Shown here: in pieces, positions 1-10,610 of the stretch
Numbering within the stretch: position 1 is the stretch's first letter
How the letters are laid out: each line of letters begins with the position of its first letter
DNA from: a virus
Taxonomy: Duplodnaviria; Heunggongvirae; Uroviricota; Caudoviricetes
Reading direction: 5' to 3' (one strand)
IMG/VR virus record: IMGVR_UViG_3300000357_000123
Length of the DNA stretch: 11,134 nt
Notes under the pieces: generated by a model
Database searches by the model: none
What the model was told of the DNA's origin: nothing
What the model saw: only the letters and a program-made list of their open reading frames with translations
Made by a program: the position numbers and the translations under genes

Positions 1-40
1 TAGCGGTCATAAAACCGCCGCGAAGCAGTCGACCGATCAT
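1..40 (-). CDS. Possible 5' end of a flanking (host-side?) gene running off the left edge; N-terminus reads MIGRLLRGGFMTA
   Basis: ATG at 40..38 on the minus strand preceded by an AAGGTGG Shine-Dalgarno about 6 nt upstream; only 13 codons visible, product not recognised. Confidence 0.3.
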   Translation of the reverse strand, partial: MIGRLLRGGFMTA

Positions 41-206
41 TCGAGTTCCACCTTCTTATTCATAAGGCGGGACACTTTCAGGATTTTGAATTTATTCAAT
101 TTTTCCCTTTCTCCAAAATCTCTCCAAAACGTTTCCCCAAAACTAGGCCACGCATTTTACAACACTTTTTTCCTGAGATGGTGACGGATATTCCATATGG
201 TGTTTG

Positions 207-1325
207 TCAAATAACCAACTTAACCCATTCCTGACCTCGAGTATCGTTATAGCGATCGGTGGTTGCCTGGACTTTATGTCCTAGTAATGTTTTTGTATCG
301 ATACCCTGTGCACGGTACAGCCGTTCTGATAGAGAGCGTTGTTCATGAAATGTTGGCGAAGTTTTTCCTGCTGGTGGAATTATCCCAGCCAGATCCCGTG
401 CTTTGGCAAAGTAGTCGCTCAGGTTGTCTTTACTCATCGGCTTCGGTTGTTTCTGGTGCCGACTATGGATTAGATATGGACTTAATATTCTGTCTCGGCA
501 CCCATCAATAACTTCTTTTAACGTTATCCCAATGGCATCACAGCGTAGTGTAAGCGGTAACGCCAGACGCATTCCGGTTTTTCCCTGGGTGATATGCAAG
601 TGTTCGTTCCACACATCTGAAAAACGCATGTGGCAAATGTCATCACGGCGCTGACCAGTAACAATCGCAAGAAGCATTGCGTTACGGATAAAGTGTTTTT
701 CAGGCGTTGCATTGTAAATTTTTTGCCAGTCTTCCATGGTGAGCCTGGCTCTGGTTACTTTAGGGATCGGTTTACGGGTAGCCTCCGGAGGATTCCATCC
801 AGGAGGAACTTCCCCTGCATGCTGTGCTTCTTTATAAATATCAACCCATAATCCACGATTTACTCTCGCTGTGCTGACCATGTCTTTATCCAGCCACTCA
901 TCCAGTATTAATGCAAAGTCTCTTACTTCCAGTTCTTTCAATGGGTGGTTTCCCAGACGGGAAACCAGGTATGCAGCCATTCGAGTTTTTTCTTTGTGAG
1001 TTGTAGCTGCAATATCTCCATTTTTCAGTCGCGTGTCCTGTATTTTCAGATATCGATCAACCCATGCCTTTAATCTGATACCCCGACGTTTTGTTGCTGA
1101 CGGACTTTCATCAATTTTGCGCATGAAATATTCAGCTTCTGCTGCAGCTATTCGCTGATTGGCTGTGGAAGCGATTTTTTCTGCCTTACCTTTGTCTGTT
1201 CCGAGTCCGTGAAATTTTCCAGTCACAGGATTTTTATACTGGTAGTAAACTCTGCCAGTTCTGCGATCAAACTTTTCGTAAAGACCGGCTACGTCAGTGC
1301 TGTTTTTTCGTGGCCTCGGTGACAT
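207..1325 (-). CDS. int: Lambda-family tyrosine integrase (site-specific recombinase)
   Basis: 372-aa ORF; C-terminal half aligns by eye with lambda Int (VTGQR, HEQRS, LLGHK, and the catalytic Tyr in TDRYNDTRG); AAGGAG RBS upstream of the ATG; the start lies within the 3' end of the upstream excisionase-like ORF if that ORF uses its alternative frame. Confidence 0.95.
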   Translation of the reverse strand: MSPRPRKNSTDVAGLYEKFDRRTGRVYYQYKNPVTGKFHGLGTDKGKAEKIASTANQRIAAAEAEYFMRKIDESPSATKRRGIRLKAWVDRYLKIQDTRLKNGDIAATTHKEKTRMAAYLVSRLGNHPLKELEVRDFALILDEWLDKDMVSTARVNRGLWVDIYKEAQHAGEVPPGWNPPEATRKPIPKVTRARLTMEDWQKIYNATPEKHFIRNAMLLAIVTGQRRDDICHMRFSDVWNEHLHITQGKTGMRLALPLTLRCDAIGITLKEVIDGCRDRILSPYLIHSRHQKQPKPMSKDNLSDYFAKARDLAGIIPPAGKTSPTFHEQRSLSERLYRAQGIDTKTLLGHKVQATTDRYNDTRGQEWVKLVI

Positions 1326-1340
1326 GAGTTAAAATCTCCT

Positions 1341-1643
1341 TCAGTGCATCATCATCGCCAGTATGAATTTCCGGCGCAATTCCCGTTTCACCAGGCCCAA
1401 CAAATACTGCTCGGCGATCTNNNNNNNNNNNNNNNNNNNNNNNNNNNNNNNNNNNNNNNNNNNNNNNNNNNNNNNNNNNNNNNNNNNNNNNNNNNNNNNN
1501 NNNNNNNNACGCCCACGAATTTTTTGTGGCCTTGGAACGATGTATCCTAGTTTTCCGTATTTCACCAGGGTAGTGTTTGTTATTGGGAGACTGAACCGTT
1601 TTGGTTTCCACTCGTCGAGCGTTATCAGGTACTGTTCGCTCAT
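1341..1643 (-). CDS. xis: Excisionase (Xis-like), interrupted by an N-run
   Basis: N-terminus MSEQYLITLDEWKPKRFSLPITNTTLVKYGKLGYIVPRPQKIRGR resembles lambda Xis (YLTLQEW ... IFPPPVKDGREYLF); ATG at 1643 with GGAG upstream; position immediately upstream of int. The C-terminus is uncertain because of the 1421-1508 gap: stop at 1341 in the gap-preserved frame, or at 1294 in the alternative frame that overlaps int. Confidence 0.7.
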   Translation of the reverse strand: MSEQYLITLDEWKPKRFSLPITNTTLVKYGKLGYIVPRPQKIRGRXXXXXXXXXXXXXXXXXXXXXXXXXXXXXXIAEQYLLGLVKRELRRKFILAMMMH

Positions 1644-1704: not shown

Positions 1705-4146
1705 TTAAAAATCAGCCTGACTCGGGATCAGTTTTTGCCAGATAACTGAAACGTATTTTGCCTGGTAACGGGCGTCATCAAGTGCATTATGGCGCTCACC
1801 TTCGAATGGAATAGCCGTTCTGGCATCGAAGTCTATGGCTTTCCCCAGCTCAACGATTGTGCGTACATCGCGATCGTTGTAGTAACGCCACGGGCAGGGG
1901 ATCCCCTGCCGTTCGTATGAACGGCGCAAAATCGTGTTGTCGAAGTTGGCTCCATTTCCCCAGACCTGAACAAAAAATTCACCGGAGTTTTCGTCGATAA
2001 ATTCCCGCAATTGTAACAGTGCATCATCTAACGGGATTTCATCGGTCATAATGGCAGATTGCGCTTCGCGTGATTGCTTAAGCCACCATTTAATGGTGTC
2101 CCGATCAATGACTCCGCCAGCAGTTTCCAGATCGATAGTCTTACTAAATTCCGGTCCCATATCTCCGGTTTGCGGATCGAAAAATATTGCACCTATTGAG
2201 ATGATCGGGGCATCAGGATTTTTTCCCATGGTTTCAAGGTCGATCATTAGATGGTCACACGTCCTGCTGGTGGATGTGATTTCTTGATGACCGTTCACCT
2301 TAATTGAGTGATCTGCCGTCTCGCCAGTTTCATTATCGCTATCGTGATGCTGATTGCCGCCAGTGTTCTCCTTGTGTGGATGTTCAGCGCCTTCCATTTC
2401 CTCCGGATCATCTTCCTGAACTTCAACCTGATACTCTTCATCGAATGTTTCCTGGTATGTTGCGTCGCCCATCACCGCGCCACAATCAGGGCAGTTGCCG
2501 CCGCCGGTCTGACCGCAGGCGGTGCAGACTTTTTCCACTTCCTGTTGCGCCACTGGTTCGGATTGTTTCGTTTCTGGCTCGTTTTGTAACGCATTTGGGC
2601 TGTTTTGTTCCGCTTTTTGGTCGTTCCGTTCCGATTCATGCTGGTTCTGGTTCACAGAATCGCGAGTCTGGATCCCTTTGACCCATTTCGGATCATTAGG
2701 GTCGCTAATCCCCTCAACAAATTCACCACGCGATACAGCAAGTAACTTATCGGCGTCAGGCTGGCTGATATTGGCTGCCTGCATAATTTTGTTTACTTCG
2801 TCAGCGGTGACTTTTACTTGGTTAGCGGAACTCACCTGCGACTGAGCATCCAGCGACTGCGCGTTCTGGCCATGTTCAGTTGTATCCGGTTCCATTGTTT
2901 CAGTTGTTGCCTGTTCACCTGCCATTGCGTCAGATGGTTGTGGTTTTTCTTCTTCTGTTTCACGCTCAGTAACCACCTCGCGGTTAATTTCTTCCAGGAT
3001 ATCTTTTTCCGGCGTATGCCGGGCAGCTGTGAGAGTTTCCTTGCTGGGGTTCTCGTGATCAGTTTCCGTCAAATAGGCGTTGATATACCCCTGAAGGCGT
3101 CCCGGGTAGTGATAAAATTCAGGGTGTGCGCTTCGGATAAGTGCAAAAATAGCGGCGCGGGAATAGTCCAGAATACCCGGGGTTGCACGAAGTGCTGCGG
3201 ACCATTCTTTGAACGGACTTTCTTTGTTCAGGACTACTTCTTTTGCGCGACGATAAACGCTGCCCGGAATTTCATAAATATTAAAATCCATCGGAAGTGT
3301 GGCTGCTGCAATCTCCACATCCAGTGTGTCGAGGGTGTGTACTAAATTCGGATTGCGATCGGTTTTGTTCCCACCGCCAGCATTAGCACCGGAAGCCGTG
3401 CGGGTGATGCGTGAAACACGATTTCCTTTCATCCACTCTTTTGTCAGCAAACCCCGATCAGTGTAGTCAGCGTCTAGGTATGCTTCGAAAAAAGCAGTTA
3501 TTAGTCCCAGGTCTGAATTACCAGGATTAGGGAAAACTTTGTCAGTGTCACGAACCAGTTTGTGGAGGTCGCGAATCTCCAGCGAGTCGAGCAGACTGGT
3601 TTTATGCGAAATAGCCAGGGCAGTAACAGCCGGTAGTTCTTCAGCCCGTGCAATGTGTAATGCCTGGAGTTCGTCGCGTGAAACGTGCGTTACTGGTTTT
3701 TCGCTGCCGTGTTGAGCAAGCCAACGAATGGGCAGTTCCTGACCGGAGACAGGCAGAAGCATGCTCTCCTCAATCTCAGTCATGGCTTCGCCGTTGATGT
3801 TGGTATTGTCAGTGCTGGCTGGTTTGTCCTGAACAGAGGGGGAAGGGCCGATAAATGTCATTGTGATGCCATCTTTCCCGCCTTTTTCATAGCGATTGCA
3901 GAATTCAGTATCAAACACGCCTTCTGGCGGAAGGTCGTCAACAACGGGCAAATTGACGCGGACGGGTTTTTTAAAGTCGTCTTCATCATAATCGTTGTCA
4001 TCCATTGCGGTAATGCAGCGGGAGATTGCAACAGATAATTTTTTTGCTGTAGTCCAGTAAAAACCACCTTTAATTCCTAGGCGTTTTCTTACTTTGTCAT
4101 TTTTTGCTTCGCAATATAGTGCAAATTCTTCTTTATCAGTGCTCAT
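1705..4146 (-). CDS. RecE-like (exodeoxyribonuclease VIII-like) N-terminal region fused to a C-terminal DEDDh (DnaQ-like) 3'-5' exonuclease domain; probable intact counterpart of Qin YdfE
   Basis: 813-aa ORF. The C-terminal 184 aa (about 1708-2259) carry the three classical DEDDh motifs: MIDLETMG (Exo I), [10 protein letters not shown] (Exo II), [11 protein letters not shown] (Exo III). A C-x2-C-x7-C-x2-C motif ([16 protein letters not shown], about 2479-2528) and an acidic/Q-rich low-complexity linker precede it. The N-terminal region resembles RecE-family prophage proteins from memory. The annotated ATG at 4146 lies 4 nt from the 4151-4247 N-run with no in-frame stop between, so the true N-terminus may be longer. 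Confidence 0.85.
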
Positions 4147-4330
4147 TATTNNNNNNNNNNNNNNNNNNNNNNNNNNNNNNNNNNNNNNNNNNNNNNNNNN
4201 NNNNNNNNNNNNNNNNNNNNNNNNNNNNNNNNNNNNNNNNNNNNNNNCCTCATCACAGATTTAAGGGTGAACAAATCTCTGCCATTGCTGACATATAAGA
4301 ATGAAACTGGATATTTATTACGGTGCTGTT

Positions 4331-4524
4331 TTAAAATCCTGCCGGGATTTCGTTATTATCCTGGTGAATAACTTTATCGACCGGATAACAGTTGCCTGGA
4401 ATTTTCTGTTCGGTTGCTGCTGCCATACATTCCTGCATTGTTCTGTGAACACTGACTGNNNNNNNNNNACTGACTCTCCGGAAACAAGAAAAACCGTCAG
4501 AATAAGTGCAAATACTGGATTCAT
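4331..4524 (-). CDS. ydfD: YdfD-like small protein with hydrophobic N-terminal segment (Qin YdfD lysis-protein family), interrupted by a 10-nt N-run
   Basis: ATG at 4524 overlaps the dicB stop (ATGA) and has an AGGA RBS; N-terminus MNPVFALILTVFLVSGES is TM/signal-like. After the 4459-4468 gap the protein-like frame is the one ending at 4331 (VSVHRTMQECMAAATEQKIPGNCYPVDKVIHQDNNEIPAGF); the gap-preserved frame ending at 4318 is K/R-rich and looks spurious. Confidence 0.55.
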
Positions 4525-4791
4525 TGTGCACATCCTTTTGGCATCAGACGTAAACGGGCCAGCATTGAAACAATGCATACTTTATTTAATAACTCCCNNN
4601 NNNNNNNNNNNNNNNNNNNNNNNNNNNNNNNNNNNNNNNNNNNNNNNNNNNNNNNNNNNNNNNNNNNNNNNNNNNNNNNNNNNNNNNNNNNNNNNNNNNN
4701 NNNNNNNNNNNNTAAATACAGGATTACTGATAGTGACACCAATTTCAAAACAACCTTCAGACGTATTAACGTTTGGTAATAACGTTTTCAT
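4521..4791 (-). CDS. dicB: Cell-division inhibitor DicB (MinC-activating), interrupted by an N-run
   Basis: N-terminus MKTLLPNVNTSEGCFEIGVTISNPVF and C-terminus ELLNKVCIVSMLARLRLMPKGCAQ match E. coli DicB as I recall it; GAGGG RBS 7 nt upstream of the ATG at 4791; sits immediately downstream of DicF as in the Qin dicB operon. The 115-nt N-run is longer than the roughly 33 nt expected for a 62-aa DicB. Confidence 0.8.
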
Positions 4792-5049
4792 TATCGCGCC
4801 CTCAACAATGAGTTTTGTGATGCGGTGCCTGGTGCCTCCAGGTGACGTTAACCAGTTAACAATTAACGCCGGATACAGAGAATCCACCCATAACACTGTT
4901 TTTGGTTTTAACTGTTCCGCGTGCGCTTANNNNNNNNNNNNNNNNNNNNNNNNNNNNNNNNNNNNNNNNNNNNNNNNNNNNNNNNNNNNNNNNNNNNNNN
5001 NNNNNNNNNNNNNNNNNNNNNNNNNNNNCCGCATCACAAAATTCACTTT

Positions 5050-5107
5050 AAAAAGGGCGGCAGAGCAGTCACGGAGTAAAACTGATACCGCCAAACGTCA
5101 CCAGAAA
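5050..5107 (-). ncRNA. dicF: DicF small regulatory RNA (Hfq-dependent; targets ftsZ and other mRNAs) with its rho-independent terminator
   Basis: Minus-strand sequence TTTCTGGTGACGTTTGGCGGTATCAGTTTTACTCCGTGACTGCTCTGCCGCCCTTTTT matches the E. coli DicF sequence from memory, including the GC stem (GGCGG...CCGCC) followed by a U-run; flanking sequence (AAAGTGAATTTTGTGATG) also matches the remembered dicF-dicB spacer. Confidence 0.85.
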
Positions 5108-5448
5108 ATTGATAACAGAGGGCGTTGCAGTGGGGTTGTCACTTAAGCGTATGGTCAACCTGACAACCCGGTGTCCTCAACGGGGGAAGGAATAACCCCG
5201 CCATACTTACCGCCGCGCCATTTCGCGGATTGCCACAACCGGAAGCGCACGGTCGACGAAAATTTAACGACAGGCTATCTATGAACCAGCTACCTCGCCG
5301 TGCGCTTTCGCGTTATGGTCTGACTTTTCAGGGAAATATCCTTTCAGTAAACTGTCAGTGCCGGATGCTCACCCGTGTCCGGCGCACGCACTCCACCTCA
5401 CCCGTGGAGAACTCCTTAATTACCAACCTTAGCTTCGTTGGTTATCTA

Positions 5449-5752
5449 TTAACGCGGGTATGTAATCATTCTGGCAATGCTTAATGCCGCTGCTTTTTCC
5501 AGCCTGGTGATATCCTGCTCCAGAGCGGACAGATTTTCAGCCTGCTTAGCTCTGGCTTCATNNNNNNNNNNNNNNNNNNNNNNNNNNNNNNNNNNNNNNN
5601 NNNNNNNNNNNNNNNNNNNNNNNNNNNNNNNNNNNNNNNNNNNNNNNNNNNCATTTCAGATCCTGCGCTGCATTAATTTTCTGGCGCATCCACTCATAAA
5701 GTTCATCATCGGTATAGTCTGGCGCGATGATGACGGGTTCTCGTTTCTGCAT
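5449..5752 (-). CDS. ydfC: YdfC-like small protein of the dicB operon, interrupted by an N-run
   Basis: ATG at 5752 with a GAGGA RBS 6 nt upstream; N-terminus MQKREPVIIAPDYTDDELYEWMRQKINAAQDLK; after the 5562-5651 gap the only protein-like frame reads EARAKQAENLSALEQDITRLEKAAALSIARMITYPR and stops at 5449. Visible residues sum to 68, close to the roughly 72 aa I recall for YdfC, so the real gap is probably about 12 nt rather than 90. Confidence 0.6.
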
Positions 5753-5781
5753 ACTGATTCCTCGCGGTGCTGTTTCGCTTA

Positions 5782-5991
5782 TCAGCCGTTAGATTTTGCC
5801 GAACTGGAAAGCGCCTGTTTAAATTCGTTGAAGCTGTGAGCTTCTTCGCCTTCGGCAAGGCCTTCGAAGNNNNNNNNNNNNNNNNNNNNNNNNNNNNNNN
5901 NNNNNNNNNNNNNNNNNNNNNNNNNNNNNNNNNNNNNNNNNNNNNNNNNNNNNNNNNNNNNNNNNNNTTCCATGATTGTGTCAAAATCCAT
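5782..5991 (-). CDS. ydfB: YdfB-like small protein of the dicB operon, interrupted by an N-run
   Basis: ATG at 5991 is 1 nt downstream of the ydfA-like stop (TGAtATG) with a GGTGAG RBS; N-terminus MDFDTIME; after the 5870-5967 gap the frame reads FEGLAEGEEAHSFNEFKQALSSSAKSNG and stops at 5782. Confidence 0.5.
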   Translation of the reverse strand: MDFDTIMEXXXXXXXXXXXXXXXXXXXXXXXXXXXXXXXXXFEGLAEGEEAHSFNEFKQALSSSAKSNG

Positions 5992-5992
5992 A

Positions 5993-6148
5993 TCACTCAC
6001 CTGAGTTTCTTTCCAGCCAGCGACGGGCACCATTTTCGGTTTTAAACGTTTTGCTTTTTGTATACGTCATTGCGGTGAAGGTGCCGTCCTGGTTTGGAAA
6101 CACGCCGTACACCAGAGATTCGTTGTTGCCAAGATCGATAGTATCCAT
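5993..6148 (-). CDS. ydfA: YdfA-like small protein (DUF1391-type), first gene of the dicB-type operon
   Basis: 51-aa reading MDTIDLGNNESLVYGVFPNQDGTFTAMTYTKSKTFKTENGARRWLERNSGE from the ATG at 6148 with a GAGG RBS 7 nt upstream. An in-frame upstream ATG at 6229 (also with GAGG) would give a 78-aa form. Confidence 0.6.
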   Translation of the reverse strand: MDTIDLGNNESLVYGVFPNQDGTFTAMTYTKSKTFKTENGARRWLERNSGE

Positions 6149-6327
6149 GCTGACCTCATTTCCCCTTAACGCCGGGGTAGCGGAACAAAAACCTGCTGCA
6201 TAGTTATTAAAGTTGAACCCTGCCGTCATGTTCTTACGCCTCGGGCTGGCTACTTAACCCCTGACCACTGCCTGGTAACTCGAAGTATTGCCCTGCATTC
6301 TGTAGGATGGGGTGAGGGAATGAATGA

Positions 6328-6356
6328 AGTTTAGAAAAACGAACTTTTCAGGTCAA
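6328..6356 (-). promoter_or_regulatory. Candidate leftward (pL-like) promoter for the dicB-type operon
   Basis: On the minus strand: TTGACC (-35, 6356..6351), 17-nt spacer, TAAACT (-10, 6333..6328). A GTTTTGAT motif (6373..6366) lies just upstream of the -35, mirroring the arrangement at the rightward promoter. Confidence 0.35.
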
Positions 6357-6610
6357 TGTTTTTTTATCAAAACATTTTAAGCAGGCAGCTGTTAAGCCAT
6401 CACCACGATGGCATACAGTTAATCAAATAGATGAGGTTGGTTAAATATCTTGTTGAATTTTAAAGCATACGCCCAATATGCAAGATAGATCATCCAGCAT
6501 AATTGAAGGGTAGCGAGGATTCGTGGGGACTAAAAGAATATCCGGCCCTTCTATCTCCAGTTTACGAATGACAGGTGTTGTGGTCCCTTTGGGTAAGGCA
6601 AGGACAATAT

Positions 6611-7165
6611 TTACTGGTTGTACGGTTCGATCNNNNNNNNNNNNNNNNNNNNNNNNNNNNNNNNNNNNNNNNNNNNNNNNNNNNNNNNNNNNNNNNNNNN
6701 NNNNNNNNNNNNNNNNNNNNNNNNNNNNNNNNNTGTTGAACCATTTGGGATGGAAACTCCCCCACCAGATGTTGACATACTGTCACTCTCTAGAACAACT
6801 GCAAAGGTATTGACCGGGATTTCTCCGACAAGCTGCACACAAGAGGTTATTGAGGAATTTTTCATATAATCACTCCAGCTTGCTGCCTGCTGAAGTGATA
6901 GTAGCGGAACCGTTTTTATCGGCGGTAAAGATAGATCAAGCGAATCACCTGTATTTAACTCTCCTCCATTAAGAAGCCAATTTTCGTTTACTTTCAATAT
7001 TTTTGCCAGTGAACTTATGTAACGCGAGGACGGCGCTCCTCCACCGTTCATCCATTGACTTACGGAGCCTTTTGATGCGCCAGTGCCATTGACAAGGTCT
7101 TTGCCTTTCAGGTTTAGCGCATGCATACGTTGGGTTATGCGTTCAGATATAGTTTGCTTGCTCAT
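6611..7165 (-). CDS. cI: CI-type prophage repressor (XRE-family HTH N-terminal domain plus S24 LexA-like autopeptidase C-terminal domain), interrupted by an N-run
   Basis: 184-aa ORF; HTH signature (GTGASKGSVSQWMNGGGAPSSRYISSLAKILKVNENWLLNG); S24 catalytic-serine motif ESDSM followed by the glycine-rich loop. Divergent from the cro-like gene across a 91-bp region. The C-terminal domain looks too short (about 54 aa after the Ser), so the 6633-6733 N-run probably hides more sequence than its length. Confidence 0.85.
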   Translation of the reverse strand: MSKQTISERITQRMHALNLKGKDLVNGTGASKGSVSQWMNGGGAPSSRYISSLAKILKVNENWLLNGGELNTGDSLDLSLPPIKTVPLLSLQQAASWSDYMKNSSITSCVQLVGEIPVNTFAVVLESDSMSTSGGGVSIPNGSTXXXXXXXXXXXXXXXXXXXXXXXXXXXXXXXXXXIEPYNQ

Positions 7166-7256
7166 GTTTTGATTTTAAAACACAGATGGTTTTGTTTCTT
7201 GACTTTCTTTGGTTTTGATTATTAAACTTTTGACGTTCAGTTTTATGGAGCGACTC
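7166..7256. promoter_or_regulatory. Divergent immunity control region (OR-like): rightward promoter and candidate operators between cI and the cro-like gene
   Basis: TTGACT (7199-7204) with TATTAA (7220-7225) 15 nt downstream as a candidate pR; GTTTTGAT(T) repeated at 7166-7174 and 7212-7220 and GGTTTTG at 7188-7194; palindromic TTTTAAAA at 7174-7181. Confidence 0.5.
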
Positions 7257-7576
7257 ATGAAAAAATCAGAAGTATTAGGCTATTTTGNNNNNNNNNNNNN
7301 NNNNNNNNNNNNNNNNNNNNNNNNNNNNNNNNNNNNNNNNNNNNNNNNNNNNNNNNNNNNNNNNNNNNNNNNNNNNNNNNNNNNNNNNNNCTAGGAACGT
7401 CAAAAACCACAGTCAGCATGTGGGGGGAAGAGGTTCCGTGGAAATGGGCGTTGCTAATTCAGGCAGTCACTGCCGGGGCGCTCAAATATGAGTTACACAT
7501 ACCGACGGTTGTCATTCCCGGTTCTGATCATAATCCGCCTTCTAACCAAGGGGGGATTCATGAAAATCAAGCATGA
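7257..7576 (+). CDS. Cro/YdaS-like small HTH regulator, interrupted by an N-run
   Basis: ATG at 7257 with GGAG 6 nt upstream (MKKSEVLGYF...); after the 7288-7390 gap the protein-like frame reads LGTSKTTVSMWGEEVPWKWALLIQAVTAGALKYELHIPTVVIPGSDHNPPSNQGGIHENQA with TGA at 7574-7576; first gene rightward of the repressor. Confidence 0.6.
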
Positions 7577-7985
7577 ACACATCCGCATGGCGATGAATGC
7601 CTGGGCGCATCCGGACGGCGAAAAAGTACCGGCTGCGAAAATTACCAAAGCGTATTTCGAGCTGGGAATGACGTTCCCGGAACTGTATGACGACAGCCAT
7701 CCGGAAGCCCTGGCTCGCAATACCCAGAAAATTTTCCGCTGGGTAGAGAAAGACACCCCTGATGCAGTTGAAAAAATTCAGGCGTTGTTACCAGCGATCG
7801 AAAAGGCAATGCCACCTTTGCTGGTGGCCAGAATGCGCAGCCACAGTTCAGCTTATTTTCGGGAGCTGGTGGAGACGCGGGAGCGACTGGTGAGAGACGC
7901 TGATGATTTTGTCGCAGTGGCAATCGCCGGTTTCAATCAGATGAACCGTGGTGGCCCGGCAGGAAATGCTGTGGCAGTACATTGA
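7560..7985 (+). CDS. YdaT-like protein (Rac-prophage YdaT family; proposed CII-like regulator or toxin)
   Basis: 141-aa ORF from the ATG at 7560 with a strong AAGGGGGG RBS; starts MKIKHEHI as I recall Rac YdaT does; overlaps the upstream cro-like gene by 17 nt. Confidence 0.75.
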   Translation: MKIKHEHIRMAMNAWAHPDGEKVPAAKITKAYFELGMTFPELYDDSHPEALARNTQKIFRWVEKDTPDAVEKIQALLPAIEKAMPPLLVARMRSHSSAYFRELVETRERLVRDADDFVAVAIAGFNQMNRGGPAGNAVAVH

Positions 7986-8056
7986 CTGACAATAGCCATA
8001 TCGAATCGCTTCCGGCAACTCGTGAGTAAAAAGATTCGGTATCAGAAGAGGTGAGT

Positions 8057-9210
8057 ATGGCTAACGCCTGGCTCAGATTATGGCATGACATGCCAAATGA
8101 CCCTAAGTGGCGAACAATTGCCAGGGTGTCAGGGCAGCCAATTGCAACAGTGATGGCAGTGTATATCCACCTCCTGGTGAGCGCGTCACGAAATGTCACG
8201 CGAGGTCACATTGATGTCACGACAGAAGATTTGGCAAGTGCGCTCGACGTGACAGAAGAGGTAATTGATTCAATTTTGCAGACGATGCAGGGGCGGGTAC
8301 TTGATGGTGATTTAATCACTGGATGGGAAAAACGCCAGGTGCTGAAAGAGGACAACGGCAATATTTCGCAAACCGCAAAATCTCCGGCAGAGCGCAAGAG
8401 GGCGCAGCGAGAGAGGGAAAGAAAGCGGGAACAAAATGGCGATTGTCACGGCGAGTCACGAAATGTCACGCACATGTCACGACGAGTCACGACAGATAAA
8501 GATACAGATAAAGATACAGATCAAGAAGATCAAAACACTATGGTCCATGGCGTAAAAAACGCCACGAACCAGGCAGGGGATGTTCAGACCGTCACTCCTG
8601 GCCAGCCCGCAGGCACGACACCGGAAGCCGATTCAGCGTATGCGCTGAAAGCCGATTCGGGCGCTGTGCAGCAGGTGATGACCGCAAGGCAGGAGCAATC
8701 ACACCAACTTCAGCAGCCTGAAGCCGATTCCGCCATTCAGCGGGAAGCCGATCGGGTAGTCCCGGAAAACACCGGGCAGCCTGTGGGACGAGTGGATTAT
8801 CCTGATGTGTTCGAACAGGTCTGGCGGGAATACCCGTTGCGTGCCGGGGCAAACCCGAAGAANNNNNNNNNNNNNNNNNNNNNNNNNNNNNNNNNNNNNN
8901 NNNNNNNNNNNNNNNNNNNNNNNNNNNNNNNNNNNNNNNNNNNNNNNNNNNNNNNNNNNNNNNNNNNNNNNNNTTACGCGAGGGGGTGCCACCAGAGGCC
9001 ATGCTGGATGGCGTGAGGCGTTACGCAAGATACCTTGCGGCTACCGGGAAAACGGGAACGGAATTTGTTCAGCGAGCGACGACGTTTTTTGGACCGGACC
9101 GGAATTTTGAAAACCCCTGGCTGCTCCCGGTAAGCGGCACGAACAACCAGCGTTGTGTGAATCATATTTCTGAACCGGATAACGAAATTCCGCCGGGCTT
9201 CAGGGGGTAA
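8057..9210 (+). CDS. Replication initiation / replisome-organizer protein (YdaU/DUF1376-like N-terminus) containing the probable origin iterons, interrupted by an N-run
   Basis: ATG at 8057 after GAGGTG; N-terminus MANAWLRLWHDMPNDPKWRTIARV fits the phage replisome-organizer N-terminal pattern (W.KL... DPK) as I recall it. After the 8863-8973 gap the protein-like frame (LREGVPPEAMLDGVRRYARYLAATGKTGTEFVQRATTFFGPDRNFENPWLLP...) runs to TAA at 9208-9210. The gap-preserved frame ends at 9016, so one gene versus two is unresolved. Confidence 0.6.
8185..8221 (+). repeat. Iteron array 1: four direct GTCAC(G/A) repeats at 10-11 bp spacing
   Basis: GTCACG at 8185, 8195 and 8216 and GTCACA at 8205; an inverted copy CGTGAC at 8248-8253; the 17-mer GTCACGAAATGTCACGC is repeated exactly at 8455-8471. 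Confidence 0.5.
8445..8516 (+). repeat. Iteron array 2: five direct GTCACG repeats at 10-11 bp spacing followed by a tandem 12-bp A-rich repeat
   Basis: GTCACG at 8445, 8455, 8465, 8476 and 8486; then GATAAAGATACA twice (8493-8516) and an A-rich stretch, resembling an iteron-plus-AT-rich origin layout. Confidence 0.5.
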
Positions 9211-9250
9211 GTGTTAATTTCTGGTCATGAGGTAATTTTCAGGAGGGCTT

Positions 9251-9673
9251 GTGGCAAAAGTTTTTACACAAGAAGAGCGGGAAAAAATTAAAGGACAGGT
9301 TCTTGAACTCGTACGCCAGAGTGGGCGCGAGACGTTACGACAACTGGAAGCTAAAACTGGGGCAACAAGATATCTGATGAGCGTTCTGGCCAGAGAGCTG
9401 GTTGCCAGTGGCGATGTATACAATTCTGGCTACGGGTTATTCCCGTCTGAACAGGCTCGTAAAGACTGGCAAAATGCCCGCAAAAAATTATCGAGGGCAA
9501 AGCTGAAGAAACCGGTTGTGGTTGATCCGGACCTTATCTGGTCGTTACCTGACGGAGAAATACGTCGCTACGACAGTCGCCTAAACATAATCTGTCGCGA
9601 GTGCCGGAAGAGTGAAGCTATGCAGCGTGTACTGGCTTTCTATCAGGGTAATTTTCAGGAGGCGGTACTGTGA
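9251..9673 (+). CDS. Hypothetical protein (140 aa) downstream of the replication initiator
   Basis: GTG start at 9251 preceded by AGGAGG (9241-9246); uninterrupted 140-aa ORF; no family recognised. Confidence 0.6.
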   Translation: MAKVFTQEEREKIKGQVLELVRQSGRETLRQLEAKTGATRYLMSVLARELVASGDVYNSGYGLFPSEQARKDWQNARKKLSRAKLKKPVVVDPDLIWSLPDGEIRRYDSRLNIICRECRKSEAMQRVLAFYQGNFQEAVL

Positions 9674-10363: not shown

Positions 10364-10610
10364 TTTTGGTTCAACTAAATACAACGTCAGTTTTGAAGAA
10401 TGGCATGAACTGTTANNNNNNNNNNNNNNNNNNNNNNNNNNNNNNNNNNNNNNNNNNNNNNNNNNNNNNNNNNNNNNNNNNNNNNNNNNNNNNNNNNNNN
10501 NNNNNNNNNNNNNTGGTGGCAGTGCTGCTGATGCTGAAGCATGGCGTGATGATTATGAAGCAGGAAAAACTCCGGTCGAAGCATATTGTGATGAGTGGGG
10601 CGATGAATGA
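10356..10610 (+). CDS. Small acidic hypothetical protein, interrupted by an N-run
   Basis: ATG at 10356 with an AGAGGA RBS 8 nt upstream, overlapping the previous stop; visible parts MADFGSTKYNVSFEEWHELL and GGSAADAEAWRDDYEAGKTPVEAYCDEWGDE; stop TGA at 10608-10610 overlaps the next ATG (ATGA). Frame across the 10416-10513 gap is unverified. Confidence 0.5.
   Translation: MADFGSTKYNVSFEEWHELLXXXXXXXXXXXXXXXXXXXXXXXXXXXXXXXXXGGSAADAEAWRDDYEAGKTPVEAYCDEWGDE

Follow-up and report, generated by a model that had tools for sequence, protein, structure and literature searches.

Positions 4331-6148 on the minus strand of the window (the whole stretch of 11,134 nucleotides of viral DNA that was analysed) are a dicBF operon, of the well-known type carried in the early-left arm of E. 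coli lambda-like prophages. We consider it quite probable (about 85%) that the operon forms the first part of a repressor-controlled early-left unit, the equivalent of that driven by PL, in a lambdoid prophage at potB/potC, and that after derepression it would block cell division and ManXYZ. The original prediction of a dicB-type operon was upheld: the order is that of the K-12 Qin prophage, ydfA-ydfB-ydfC-DicF-dicB-ydfD, all on one strand, and the predicted bounds were exact, with the ydfD stop codon at 4331 and the ydfA start codon at 6148.

The gene ydfA (5993-6148) encodes a DUF1391 protein of 51 amino acids (Pfam, E-value 2e-28), which is identical to K-12 YdfA at all 51 positions and 86% identical to Rac YdaF. 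The products of ydfB (5782-5991, 42 aa) and ydfC (5449-5752, 72 aa) match their K-12 counterparts at 40 and 71 residues, respectively. The DicF small RNA was identified at 5055-5106 with Rfam model RF00039 (76.7 bits against a gathering score of 48, E-value 6e-16, full model 1-52); its sequence is identical to K-12 dicF, with a 3' hairpin and then a T-run. The 5' untranslated region of dicB (4792-5054) lies downstream of this terminator, the T-run of which is at approximately 5050-5054; it shows 97-98% identity to Qin and about 80% identity to the region upstream of Rac kilR. DicB (4521-4791, 62 aa, 60 of them identical to K-12), with 33 masked gene bases taken from E. coli EcPF5, scored 135.4 bits with Pfam PF05358 (cut-off 27) and 134.3 bits with NCBIfam NF049927 CellDivInhibDicB (cut-off 100). 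The product of ydfD (4331-4524, 63 aa) is a DUF1482 protein (Pfam, E-value 9e-25) sharing 55 residues with K-12 YdfD, and exactly this protein occurs in at least 1,000 public contigs. All these features are on the minus strand. After filling of the masked stretches, protein identities to Qin ranged from 87 to 100%. At the DNA level homology to Qin extends over 4150-6186 (96.4% over 1,602 nt); it breaks off 38 nt upstream of ydfA at one end and shortly beyond ydfD at the other.

Five runs of N interrupt the operon: 4459-4468 (in ydfD), 4598-4712 (dicB), 4930-5028, 5562-5651 (ydfC) and 5870-5967 (ydfB). Based on the spacing of their flanks in relatives, they stand for 8, 33, 10, 5 and 17 real bases, respectively. 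Elsewhere, the masks at 1421-1508 (xis), 6633-6733 (repressor) and 7288-7390 (Cro-like gene) stand for 8, 15 and 26 bases. Since flanks map just 5-33 bases apart, the runs are far too long, and a frame read through any of them in the raw window has no meaning. Open reading frames taken straight from the raw window were rejected as artefacts of runs about 100 letters long, and gene sequences were rebuilt from relatives across the masks. Because the masked bases are unseen in the window, we infer the intactness of the operon, which had been called "apparently intact", from EcPF5; in this sequence a single one of the 10,124 unmasked bases differs from the window, and all five operon genes are annotated as open. 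It is highly improbable that the masks hide a disruption in any of the genes, even with four of the five masks lying inside coding sequence, as the lengths found in relatives keep every gene in frame and the near-identical EcPF5 is open throughout.

A consensus scan identified a candidate PL-type promoter on the minus strand, 180 nt before ydfA (TTGACC at 6356-6351, a 17-nt spacer, TAAACT at 6333-6328). Adjoining its -35 hexamer is a candidate left operator, ATGTTTTGATAAAAAAACAT, at 6376-6357 (promoter and operator together, 6328-6376), which was the one convincing operator site at the left promoter. An OR-like region (7164-7229, plus strand) contains three sites with GTTTTG(A/T)T, which begin at 7164, 7187 and 7210 and are thus spaced 23 nt apart, together with a candidate PR-like promoter (TTGACT at 7199-7204, an 18-nt spacer, TAAACT at 7223-7228). 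The inverted repeat ATGTTTT..AAAACAT is common to the cI-ydfA and cI-cro spacers. As the A/T-rich GTTTTGAT-type pattern was counted no more often in the window than expected from shuffled sequence, the putative operators were assigned on position, the 23-nt spacing and the palindrome.

The putative leader of the early-left transcript (6149-6327, minus strand) is Rac-like over 6161-6314, a stretch common to phage Tritos; it is 85% identical to the Rac ydaG-racR spacer. The 174-nt leader folded no better than shuffled sequences (z +0.9), and a permissive Rfam search of 4100-7600 for an antitermination RNA or structured element added only STnc100 at 18 bits, below threshold. Lambda uses N antitermination; no N-like antiterminator was found here, and that transcription continues beyond the DicF terminator into dicB, exo, xis and int is therefore assumed from Qin.

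The order PL/OL-cI-OR-cro makes up an immunity cassette of 1.24 kb (6315-7554), the homology to Tritos having its boundaries at 6314 and 7555. Because the boundaries fall at these points, the promoter and operators appear to travel with the repressor. The predicted mosaic character of the element was thereby made specific, the cassette, ydfA promoter included, having been exchanged as a whole in comparison with phages that are near-identical elsewhere. Alignment against K-12 Qin and Rac left the identity of the operon standing and showed how far homology extends; the two breakpoints of the cassette come from the comparison with Tritos.

A CI-type repressor with an S24 peptidase domain, in place of DicA, had been predicted and was found upstream of the operon on the same strand (6441-7165, 212 aa, full length). 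Peptidase_S24 scored 43.3 bits against a cut-off of 23.3 and HTH_3 20.8 bits, under its cut-off of 23; lambda CI aligns over residues 13-204 (E-value 1e-8), and the reading frame is open in three relatives. Similarity to DicA is confined to the HTH (35% identity over 65 aa). The catalytic serine and lysine are present, with "ESDSM" corresponding to lambda "EGNSM" and "VIRKL" to "TFKKL" (S149 and K192 in lambda CI).

The cleavage site is less conventional. Ala94-Ala95 stands opposite lambda Ala111-Gly112 ("LQQAASW" vs "HVQAGMF"); neither Ala-Gly nor Cys-Gly was found in the linker, and all relatives aligned likewise have Ala-Ala. In addition, the window has a private G156V substitution (position 6613), where lambda CI and all relatives keep the glycine of the "PGD/PGN" turn. 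The exact V156 repressor is absent from a collection of 15 billion proteins, and none of 5,426 complete genomes matches its stretch at 100%; the G156 form occurs in at least 1,000 contigs. These features could mean that the repressor is unable to cleave itself, so that the prophage would be locked, neither it nor the operon responding to DNA damage, and the element would be heading towards the cryptic state of Qin. We regard this as unlikely, since the catalytic serine (DSM) and lysine (RKL) align with those of lambda CI, G156V could be a sequencing error, and induction by an antirepressor, as by Rem for DicA, is conceivable. The Ala-Ala form is common in a widespread repressor and is therefore probably functional in some way. 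The element may be inducible, as was predicted, the dipeptide and G156V adding doubt. When isolated phages were searched for the S24 repressor by tblastn, only two in-silico records and one unannotated record matched. The near-identical "phage" records ON470612 and ON470619 were rejected as proof of inducibility: they are in-silico prophages, the record being a "partial genome" entry with host potC, potD, ymfA and ycfZ, and the sole paper naming it concerns phages "located in" clinical isolates.

The left end of the prophage is included in the window. Positions 1-62 (minus strand) are host DNA, consisting of the 5' end of potC (start codon at 40) and the potB/potC junction, the region of the attachment site; they are 100% identical to the potC-potB junction of strains that lack the prophage, 536 among them, and in the EcPF5 annotation potC runs up to the left prophage end. 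Genes for integrase and excisionase were both full length, as predicted. The integrase (207-1325, minus strand, 372 aa) is free of masks and has arm-binding and catalytic domains (Pfam Arm-DNA-bind_1, E-value 4e-21; Phage_integrase, E-value 2.5e-18). The excisionase (1294-1643, minus strand) is a protein of 89 aa after its mask is reduced to 8 bases; it scored 23.2 bits with Pfam Exc (cut-off 23) and is so annotated in EcPF5 and MCJCHV-1. The int, xis and immunity regions are intact in the window, and the remainder of the prophage lies outside it. In the near-identical EcPF5 the prophage extends from potB to potC over approximately 46.5 kb and has genes for Q, holin, lysozyme, terminase, portal, capsid, tail and J, along with a few pseudogene fragments.

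Between xis and the operon lies a gene for an 813-aa exonuclease (1705-4146, minus strand), in which a RecE-like N-terminal region (Exonuc_VIII, aa 57-189) is fused to a DEDDh (Rv2179c-like) 3'-5' exonuclease domain (aa 632-803, E-value 1e-67). It is 58.6% identical to Rac RecE over aa 50-591, the non-catalytic N-terminal part of that protein, and the NCBIfam exoVIII model aligned over positions 1-602 of 877 only (944 bits, below the cut-off of 1,269). No recT was found between exo and xis. The exonuclease had been called ydfE-like, a description that has to be abandoned, as the protein gave no tblastn match (E-value 1e-3) to the K-12 ydfE/Qin locus; integrase and excisionase likewise gave no tblastn match to this locus with its ydfE and intQ pseudogenes. 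Judged by domains and alignment, it is neither YdfE nor catalytic RecE.

To the right of the repressor gene, a Cro-like regulator of 80 aa (7257-7576, plus strand) belongs to the P22_Cro family (Pfam, E-value 1e-15), as does K-12 DicC, to which it has no BLASTP match; it gave no match to YdaS_toxin (PF15943), with which the K-12 YdaS control scored 107.7 bits. The next gene (7560-7985, plus strand), in the position of a CII-like gene, encodes a YdaT-family protein of 141 aa (YdaT_toxin PF06254, E-value 7e-10, 39.6 bits against a cut-off of 21), which is 33% identical to Rac YdaT and 37% to Qin YdfX. The 356-aa replication protein had no Pfam match, DUF1376 included, and resembles YdaU in its last 19 aa only. 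Of the Rac-like ydaS/ydaT/ydaU right arm first proposed, the YdaT-family gene thus stands, while the other two members are a P22_Cro protein and a replication protein of another kind.

In the lysogen, the CI-type repressor would bind GTTTTGAT-type operators both at OR and next to the -35 hexamer of TTGACC-17-TAAACT (6356-6328), keeping the operon off. On loss of the repressor, leftward transcription would proceed through ydfA-ydfB-ydfC, and DicF would be set free either where transcription terminates at its own hairpin or when RNase III/RNase E process the transcript. Read-through would give dicB and ydfD, and would probably continue into exo-xis-int. By analogy with Qin, the expected outcome of DicF and DicB activity is filamentation and an injection block for phages using ManYZ. 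The phage would most likely benefit from a transient division block and superinfection exclusion in early lytic growth, a role which would parallel those of lambda Kil, from the PL operon, and Rac kilR.

Published work on Qin supports this scheme. There, dicBp, the counterpart of PL, is under repression by DicA, RNase III/E process DicF, and derepression results in filamentation through DicB and DicF (PMC10448788). DicF is published to pair with the ftsZ and manX mRNAs, and DicB together with MinC to block the Z-ring and inhibit ManXYZ. In uropathogenic E. coli UTI89, the homologous region exoO-dicB-dicF-ydfC-ydfB-ydfA-dicA-dicC scored in an expression screen as inhibiting division and caused filamentation when expressed (PMC6206680). 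Division inhibition by the present operon is predicted from sequence identity together with these studies (PMC10448788, PMC6832061, PMC6206680).

The suggestion that the module acts in exclusion is a restatement of published work, in which ManYZ is inhibited by DicB-MinC and protection from lambda and other phages that depend on ManYZ is confined to conditions of operon expression (PMC6832061). With the repressor active in a lysogen, exclusion activity would be mostly off. The operon might still be kept mainly for the host, with low-level or subpopulation expression protecting the lysogen through DicB-MinC inhibition of ManYZ. Besides the published protection, this reading draws on the spontaneous derepression of dicBp in about 1% of K-12 cells (PMC10448788) and on the wide occurrence of the module, which 4,758 of 5,426 complete E. 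coli genomes carry, frequently as multiple copies. Nevertheless, we find it rather unlikely. The operon lies behind a full-length repressor and its own candidate operator-bearing promoter, the near-identical EcPF5 prophage has a complete structural gene set, and the module is carried by isolated, propagating phages, one of them the functional mEp460_ev081 (PMC10448788); because of these three points, an early function serving the phage is enough to account for its being kept, with no need of an advantage to the host. Moreover, protection was demonstrated on induced expression only.

Earlier publications cover the operon, the activities of its products, its occurrence in many prophages of pathogenic E. 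coli as well as in temperate phages that are functional, and its PL-like control. The junction of the operon with an S24 cI was detected in 785 of the 5,426 complete E. coli genomes, and since the same arrangement is already present in hundreds of sequenced genomes, it is ordinary and already known. Two points retain value. One is the S24 cassette with its non-canonical cleavage-site dipeptide; the other is the occurrence of the dicBF module under interchangeable immunity cassettes, so that the inducing signal should differ between strains. With a LexA-like S24 repressor over dicBF in about one-seventh of E. coli genomes, inactivation by DNA damage may provide an SOS-coupled block of division and ManXYZ that is independent of SulA, or the Ala-Ala family may sense something other than RecA*; both are offered tentatively and with considerable doubt. 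SOS coupling, if true, would have consequences in extraintestinal pathogenic strains, affecting filamentation in urinary infection and responses to quinolones.

Compared with known systems, the operon is closest in content to that of K-12 Qin, which has the same six elements in the same order. The two differ in their surroundings: Qin has a DicA repressor of 135 aa and an unlike promoter/operator region, ydfE and intQ pseudogenes downstream where the window has an intact, unrelated exonuclease, xis and int, and an integration site other than potB/potC. The UTI89 prophage has the same operon and a neighbouring exonuclease, with DicA/DicC immunity rather than an S24 CI.

Four isolated temperate coliphages, Tritos (OV696610), PhiR42_1 (PV340562), mEp460_ev081 (LR597641) and HannyBb (PP925841), share the layout of the window, namely int-xis-exo-ydfD-dicB-DicF-ydfC-...-repressor-cro-YdaT/CII-like-O-like. 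Tritos, in which DicF is annotated, is 96-98% identical to the window over 1661-2816, 4142-6314 and 7555-9656. Integrases and the central part of the exonuclease differ from those of the window in all four, and their repressors are short and DicA/C2-like (135-152 aa, without S24 as judged by annotated length), those of PhiR42_1 and mEp460_ev081 having the 135 aa of DicA. With the same left arm and short repressors, these phages are closer to the Qin layout than the present element, which is a mosaic and not the ancestor of Qin; the description "ancestor-like" is therefore not retained.

Lambda kil, although without sequence relationship to the operon, is likewise a repressor-controlled division inhibitor gene of the early-left (PL) region; its product is described as a small FtsZ-directed inhibitor from the PL operon (PMC3961180). 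The early-left arm of Rac (racR-ydaG-ydaF-sieB-kilS-kilR ... recE recT) differs in having RacR as repressor, KilR in the place of DicB, a different 5' part of KilS and a true RecE/RecT pair, and it has a small RNA followed by a division inhibitor in the same position.

Eleven runs of N, 10-115 N each, occur in the 11,134-base window; placing its unmasked segments on close relatives left only 5-33 bases between the two sides of every run. Runs 1421-1508, 4151-4247, 4459-4468 and 4598-4712 stand for 8, 6, 8 and 33 real bases, respectively; 4930-5028, 5562-5651, 5870-5967 and 6633-6733 for 10, 5, 17 and 15; and 7288-7390, 8863-8973 and 10416-10513 for 26, 28 and 20. Window coordinates are inflated by about 830 bases, and since any ORF crossing a run in the raw window has an arbitrary, meaningless frame, such calls were rejected. 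ORFs were called instead on a rebuild of 10,300 bases with short fills from E. coli MCJCHV-1. The fills are well founded because the prophage of E. coli strain EcPF5 (NZ_CP054236.1; isolated from urine) equals the window at all unmasked bases but one.

The minus-strand operon predicted at 4331-6148 is real, and the span runs exactly from the ydfD stop codon to the ydfA start codon. On the rebuild, ydfD (4331-4524), dicB (4521-4791), ydfC (5449-5752), ydfB (5782-5991) and ydfA (5993-6148) were called in the K-12 order, with DicF at 5055-5106 (minus strand). The Rfam match to DicF scored 76.7 bits against a gathering score of 48 (E 6e-16) and covered the whole model, and the sequence is identical to that of K-12 DicF. 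Identities to the K-12 Qin proteins were 51/51 for YdfA, 40/42 for YdfB, 71/72 for YdfC, 60/62 for DicB and 55/63 for YdfD. YdfA (DUF1391), DicB (DicB family) and YdfD (DUF1482) matched their Pfam or NCBIfam families above curated cut-offs. The operon is apparently intact, as had been proposed, but 73 masked bases within it can be read in relatives only. The Rfam search found no further RNA family; a sub-threshold STnc100 match in the dicB 5' UTR (4814-4902, minus strand; 18.4 bits against 47, E 0.6) is probably due to chance.

Starting at an in-frame ATG at 6229 would lengthen the ydfA product to 78 aa (added stretch 6149-6229, minus strand), the form annotated in the isolated temperate coliphage Tritos. 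The short 51-aa product is the conserved form, since K-12 homology begins only at 6186. In phage record ON470612 (L001, 8324-8765) about 440 bp with an unrelated 118-aa ORF replace ydfA and ydfB, with junctions near window 5752 and 6159, while the rest of the prophage is 99.7% identical. On this comparison, exchange evidently extends to the operon's first genes themselves.

Alignment to K-12 Qin showed homology limited to 4150-6186 (96.4%). The mosaic nature of the element was borne out. Tritos shares 96-98% identity with the window at 1661-2816, 4142-6314 and 7555-9656, and is unrelated in the central part of the exonuclease gene and in 6315-7554. The latter is a 1.24-kb immunity cassette comprising the promoter before ydfA, the repressor, a divergent control region and cro. 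The same left arm is carried by Tritos, PhiR42_1, mEp460_ev081 and HannyBb, whose repressors are 135-152 aa long as annotated; those of PhiR42_1 and mEp460_ev081 have 135 aa, the length of DicA. Qin's layout is nearer to these short-repressor phages than to the present element, which argues against the proposal that the latter is ancestor-like. The alignments indicate an ordinary lambdoid mosaic, not a Qin ancestor.

Host DNA at 1-62 corresponds to the potB/potC junction. The predicted full-length integrase (207-1325; lambda-type Arm-binding and catalytic domains), excisionase (1294-1643; Pfam Exc) and CI-type repressor (6441-7165; HTH and Peptidase_S24), all on the minus strand, were recognized by their domains. 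The 813-aa exonuclease (1705-4146, minus strand) had been called ydfE-like; it gave no tblastn match to the K-12 Qin locus, and is instead a fusion of a RecE-related N-terminal part (58.6% identical to Rac RecE residues 50-591) and a C-terminal Rv2179c-like DEDDh 3'-5' exonuclease domain (E 1e-67). It matches only positions 1-602 of 877 of the NCBIfam exoVIII model, below cut-off, and no recT partner is present. Its gene is intact in the window and EcPF5 and frameshifted in MCJCHV-1 (L002, 3607-6047). Of the Rac-like ydaS/ydaT/ydaU right arm only one gene in three stood: the plus-strand gene next to cro belongs to the YdaT family (33% identical to YdaT), but the plus-strand Cro-like protein is of the P22_Cro family, as is K-12 DicC, with no match to the YdaS family, and the 356-aa replication protein lacks DUF1376 and resembles YdaU in its last 19 residues only.

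The 212-aa repressor aligns with lambda CI over residues 13-204, including the catalytic Ser and Lys, and its frame is open in all three relatives examined. PGAP/RefSeq annotates the C-terminal 112 aa only, as a "LexA family protein" (MCJCHV-1, L002 7912-8550; EcPF5, L005 25431-26069), which looks like an under-called start site. Opposite the Ala111-Gly112 cleavage site of lambda CI lies Ala94-Ala95 (about 6880-6885), common to the whole widespread S24 repressor family; the linker contains no Ala-Gly or Cys-Gly. The sole unmasked base differing from EcPF5, at 6613, changes codon 156 from Gly to Val, in the window alone; the aligned lambda CI residue is the Gly of "EPGD". The exact V156 protein was absent from a collection of 15 billion proteins, in which the G156 form occurs on at least 1,000 contigs, and none of 5,426 complete E. 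coli genomes matched the stretch at 100%. The change could impair the repressor, or be a sequencing error.

The EcPF5 prophage extends about 46.5 kb from potB to potC, with Q, J, lysis, terminase, portal, capsid and tail genes and only a few pseudogene fragments. This gene content makes a functional phage plausible, with caution owing to Ala94-Ala95 and Val156. Records ON470612 and ON470619 (99.7% match) were rejected as evidence of induction: they are partial and include host genes, and the study behind them dealt with phages located in clinical isolates. No isolated phage with this S24 repressor was present in the collection searched.

Some part of the dicB region occurs in 4,758 of the 5,426 genomes, the ydfB-ydfA-promoter-S24 cI junction in 785 (at least 80% coverage) and at least 80% of the whole window in 315; 18 phage records carry at least 80% of the dicB-DicF-ydfC core. 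Proteins identical to the window's DicB, YdfD and exonuclease occur, each of them, on 1,000 or more public contigs. The operon is correctly named and already known: many E. coli have conserved dicBF, frequently with several dicBF-bearing prophages in one genome (PMC6832061, PMC10448788), and a functional temperate phage carries it (PMC10448788). Whether dicBF is SOS-coupled in the many strains with this cassette would depend on the signal that inactivates the Ala-Ala S24 repressor.

A candidate sigma 70-like left promoter (TTGACC, 17 nt, TAAACT; 6356-6328, minus strand) precedes ydfA by 180 nt, its -35 hexamer adjoined by the 20-bp palindrome ATGTTTTGATAAAAAAACAT (6376-6357). The half-site recurs three times in the cI-cro spacer (starts 7164, 7187 and 7210, spacing 23 nt), overlapping a PR-like promoter (TTGACT, 18 nt, TAAACT). 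This A/T-rich motif is no more frequent in the window than chance predicts; position, spacing and travel inside the swapped cassette suggest candidate operators. Neither an N-like gene nor a structured leader was found. CI would repress the left promoter, and its loss would allow transcription through ydfABC. DicF may be released by termination at its own hairpin or by RNase III/E processing, and read-through would yield DicB and YdfD, probably with the exonuclease, Xis and Int.

In Qin, dicBp is a PL analogue repressed by DicA, and its derepression leads to filamentation through DicB and DicF (PMC10448788). DicB with MinC inhibits ManYZ, blocking lambda infection (PMC6832061), and the homologous UTI89 region was scored as inhibiting division (PMC6206680). 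For a phage, the operon most plausibly serves to block division early in lytic growth and to exclude superinfecting phages, a role analogous to that of lambda Kil. The leader (6161-6314) and ydfA are Rac-like, and the dicB 5' UTR shares about 80% identity with the sequence preceding Rac kilR, where the KilS sRNA takes the position that DicF has upstream of dicB. KilS (K-12 Rac, L004 7385-7510) shares exactly the DicF terminator hairpin arms and 26 downstream bases with window 5029-5125, whereas its 5' part differs. The "sRNA plus division inhibitor" modules of Rac and dicBF appear to have diverged from a single cassette.
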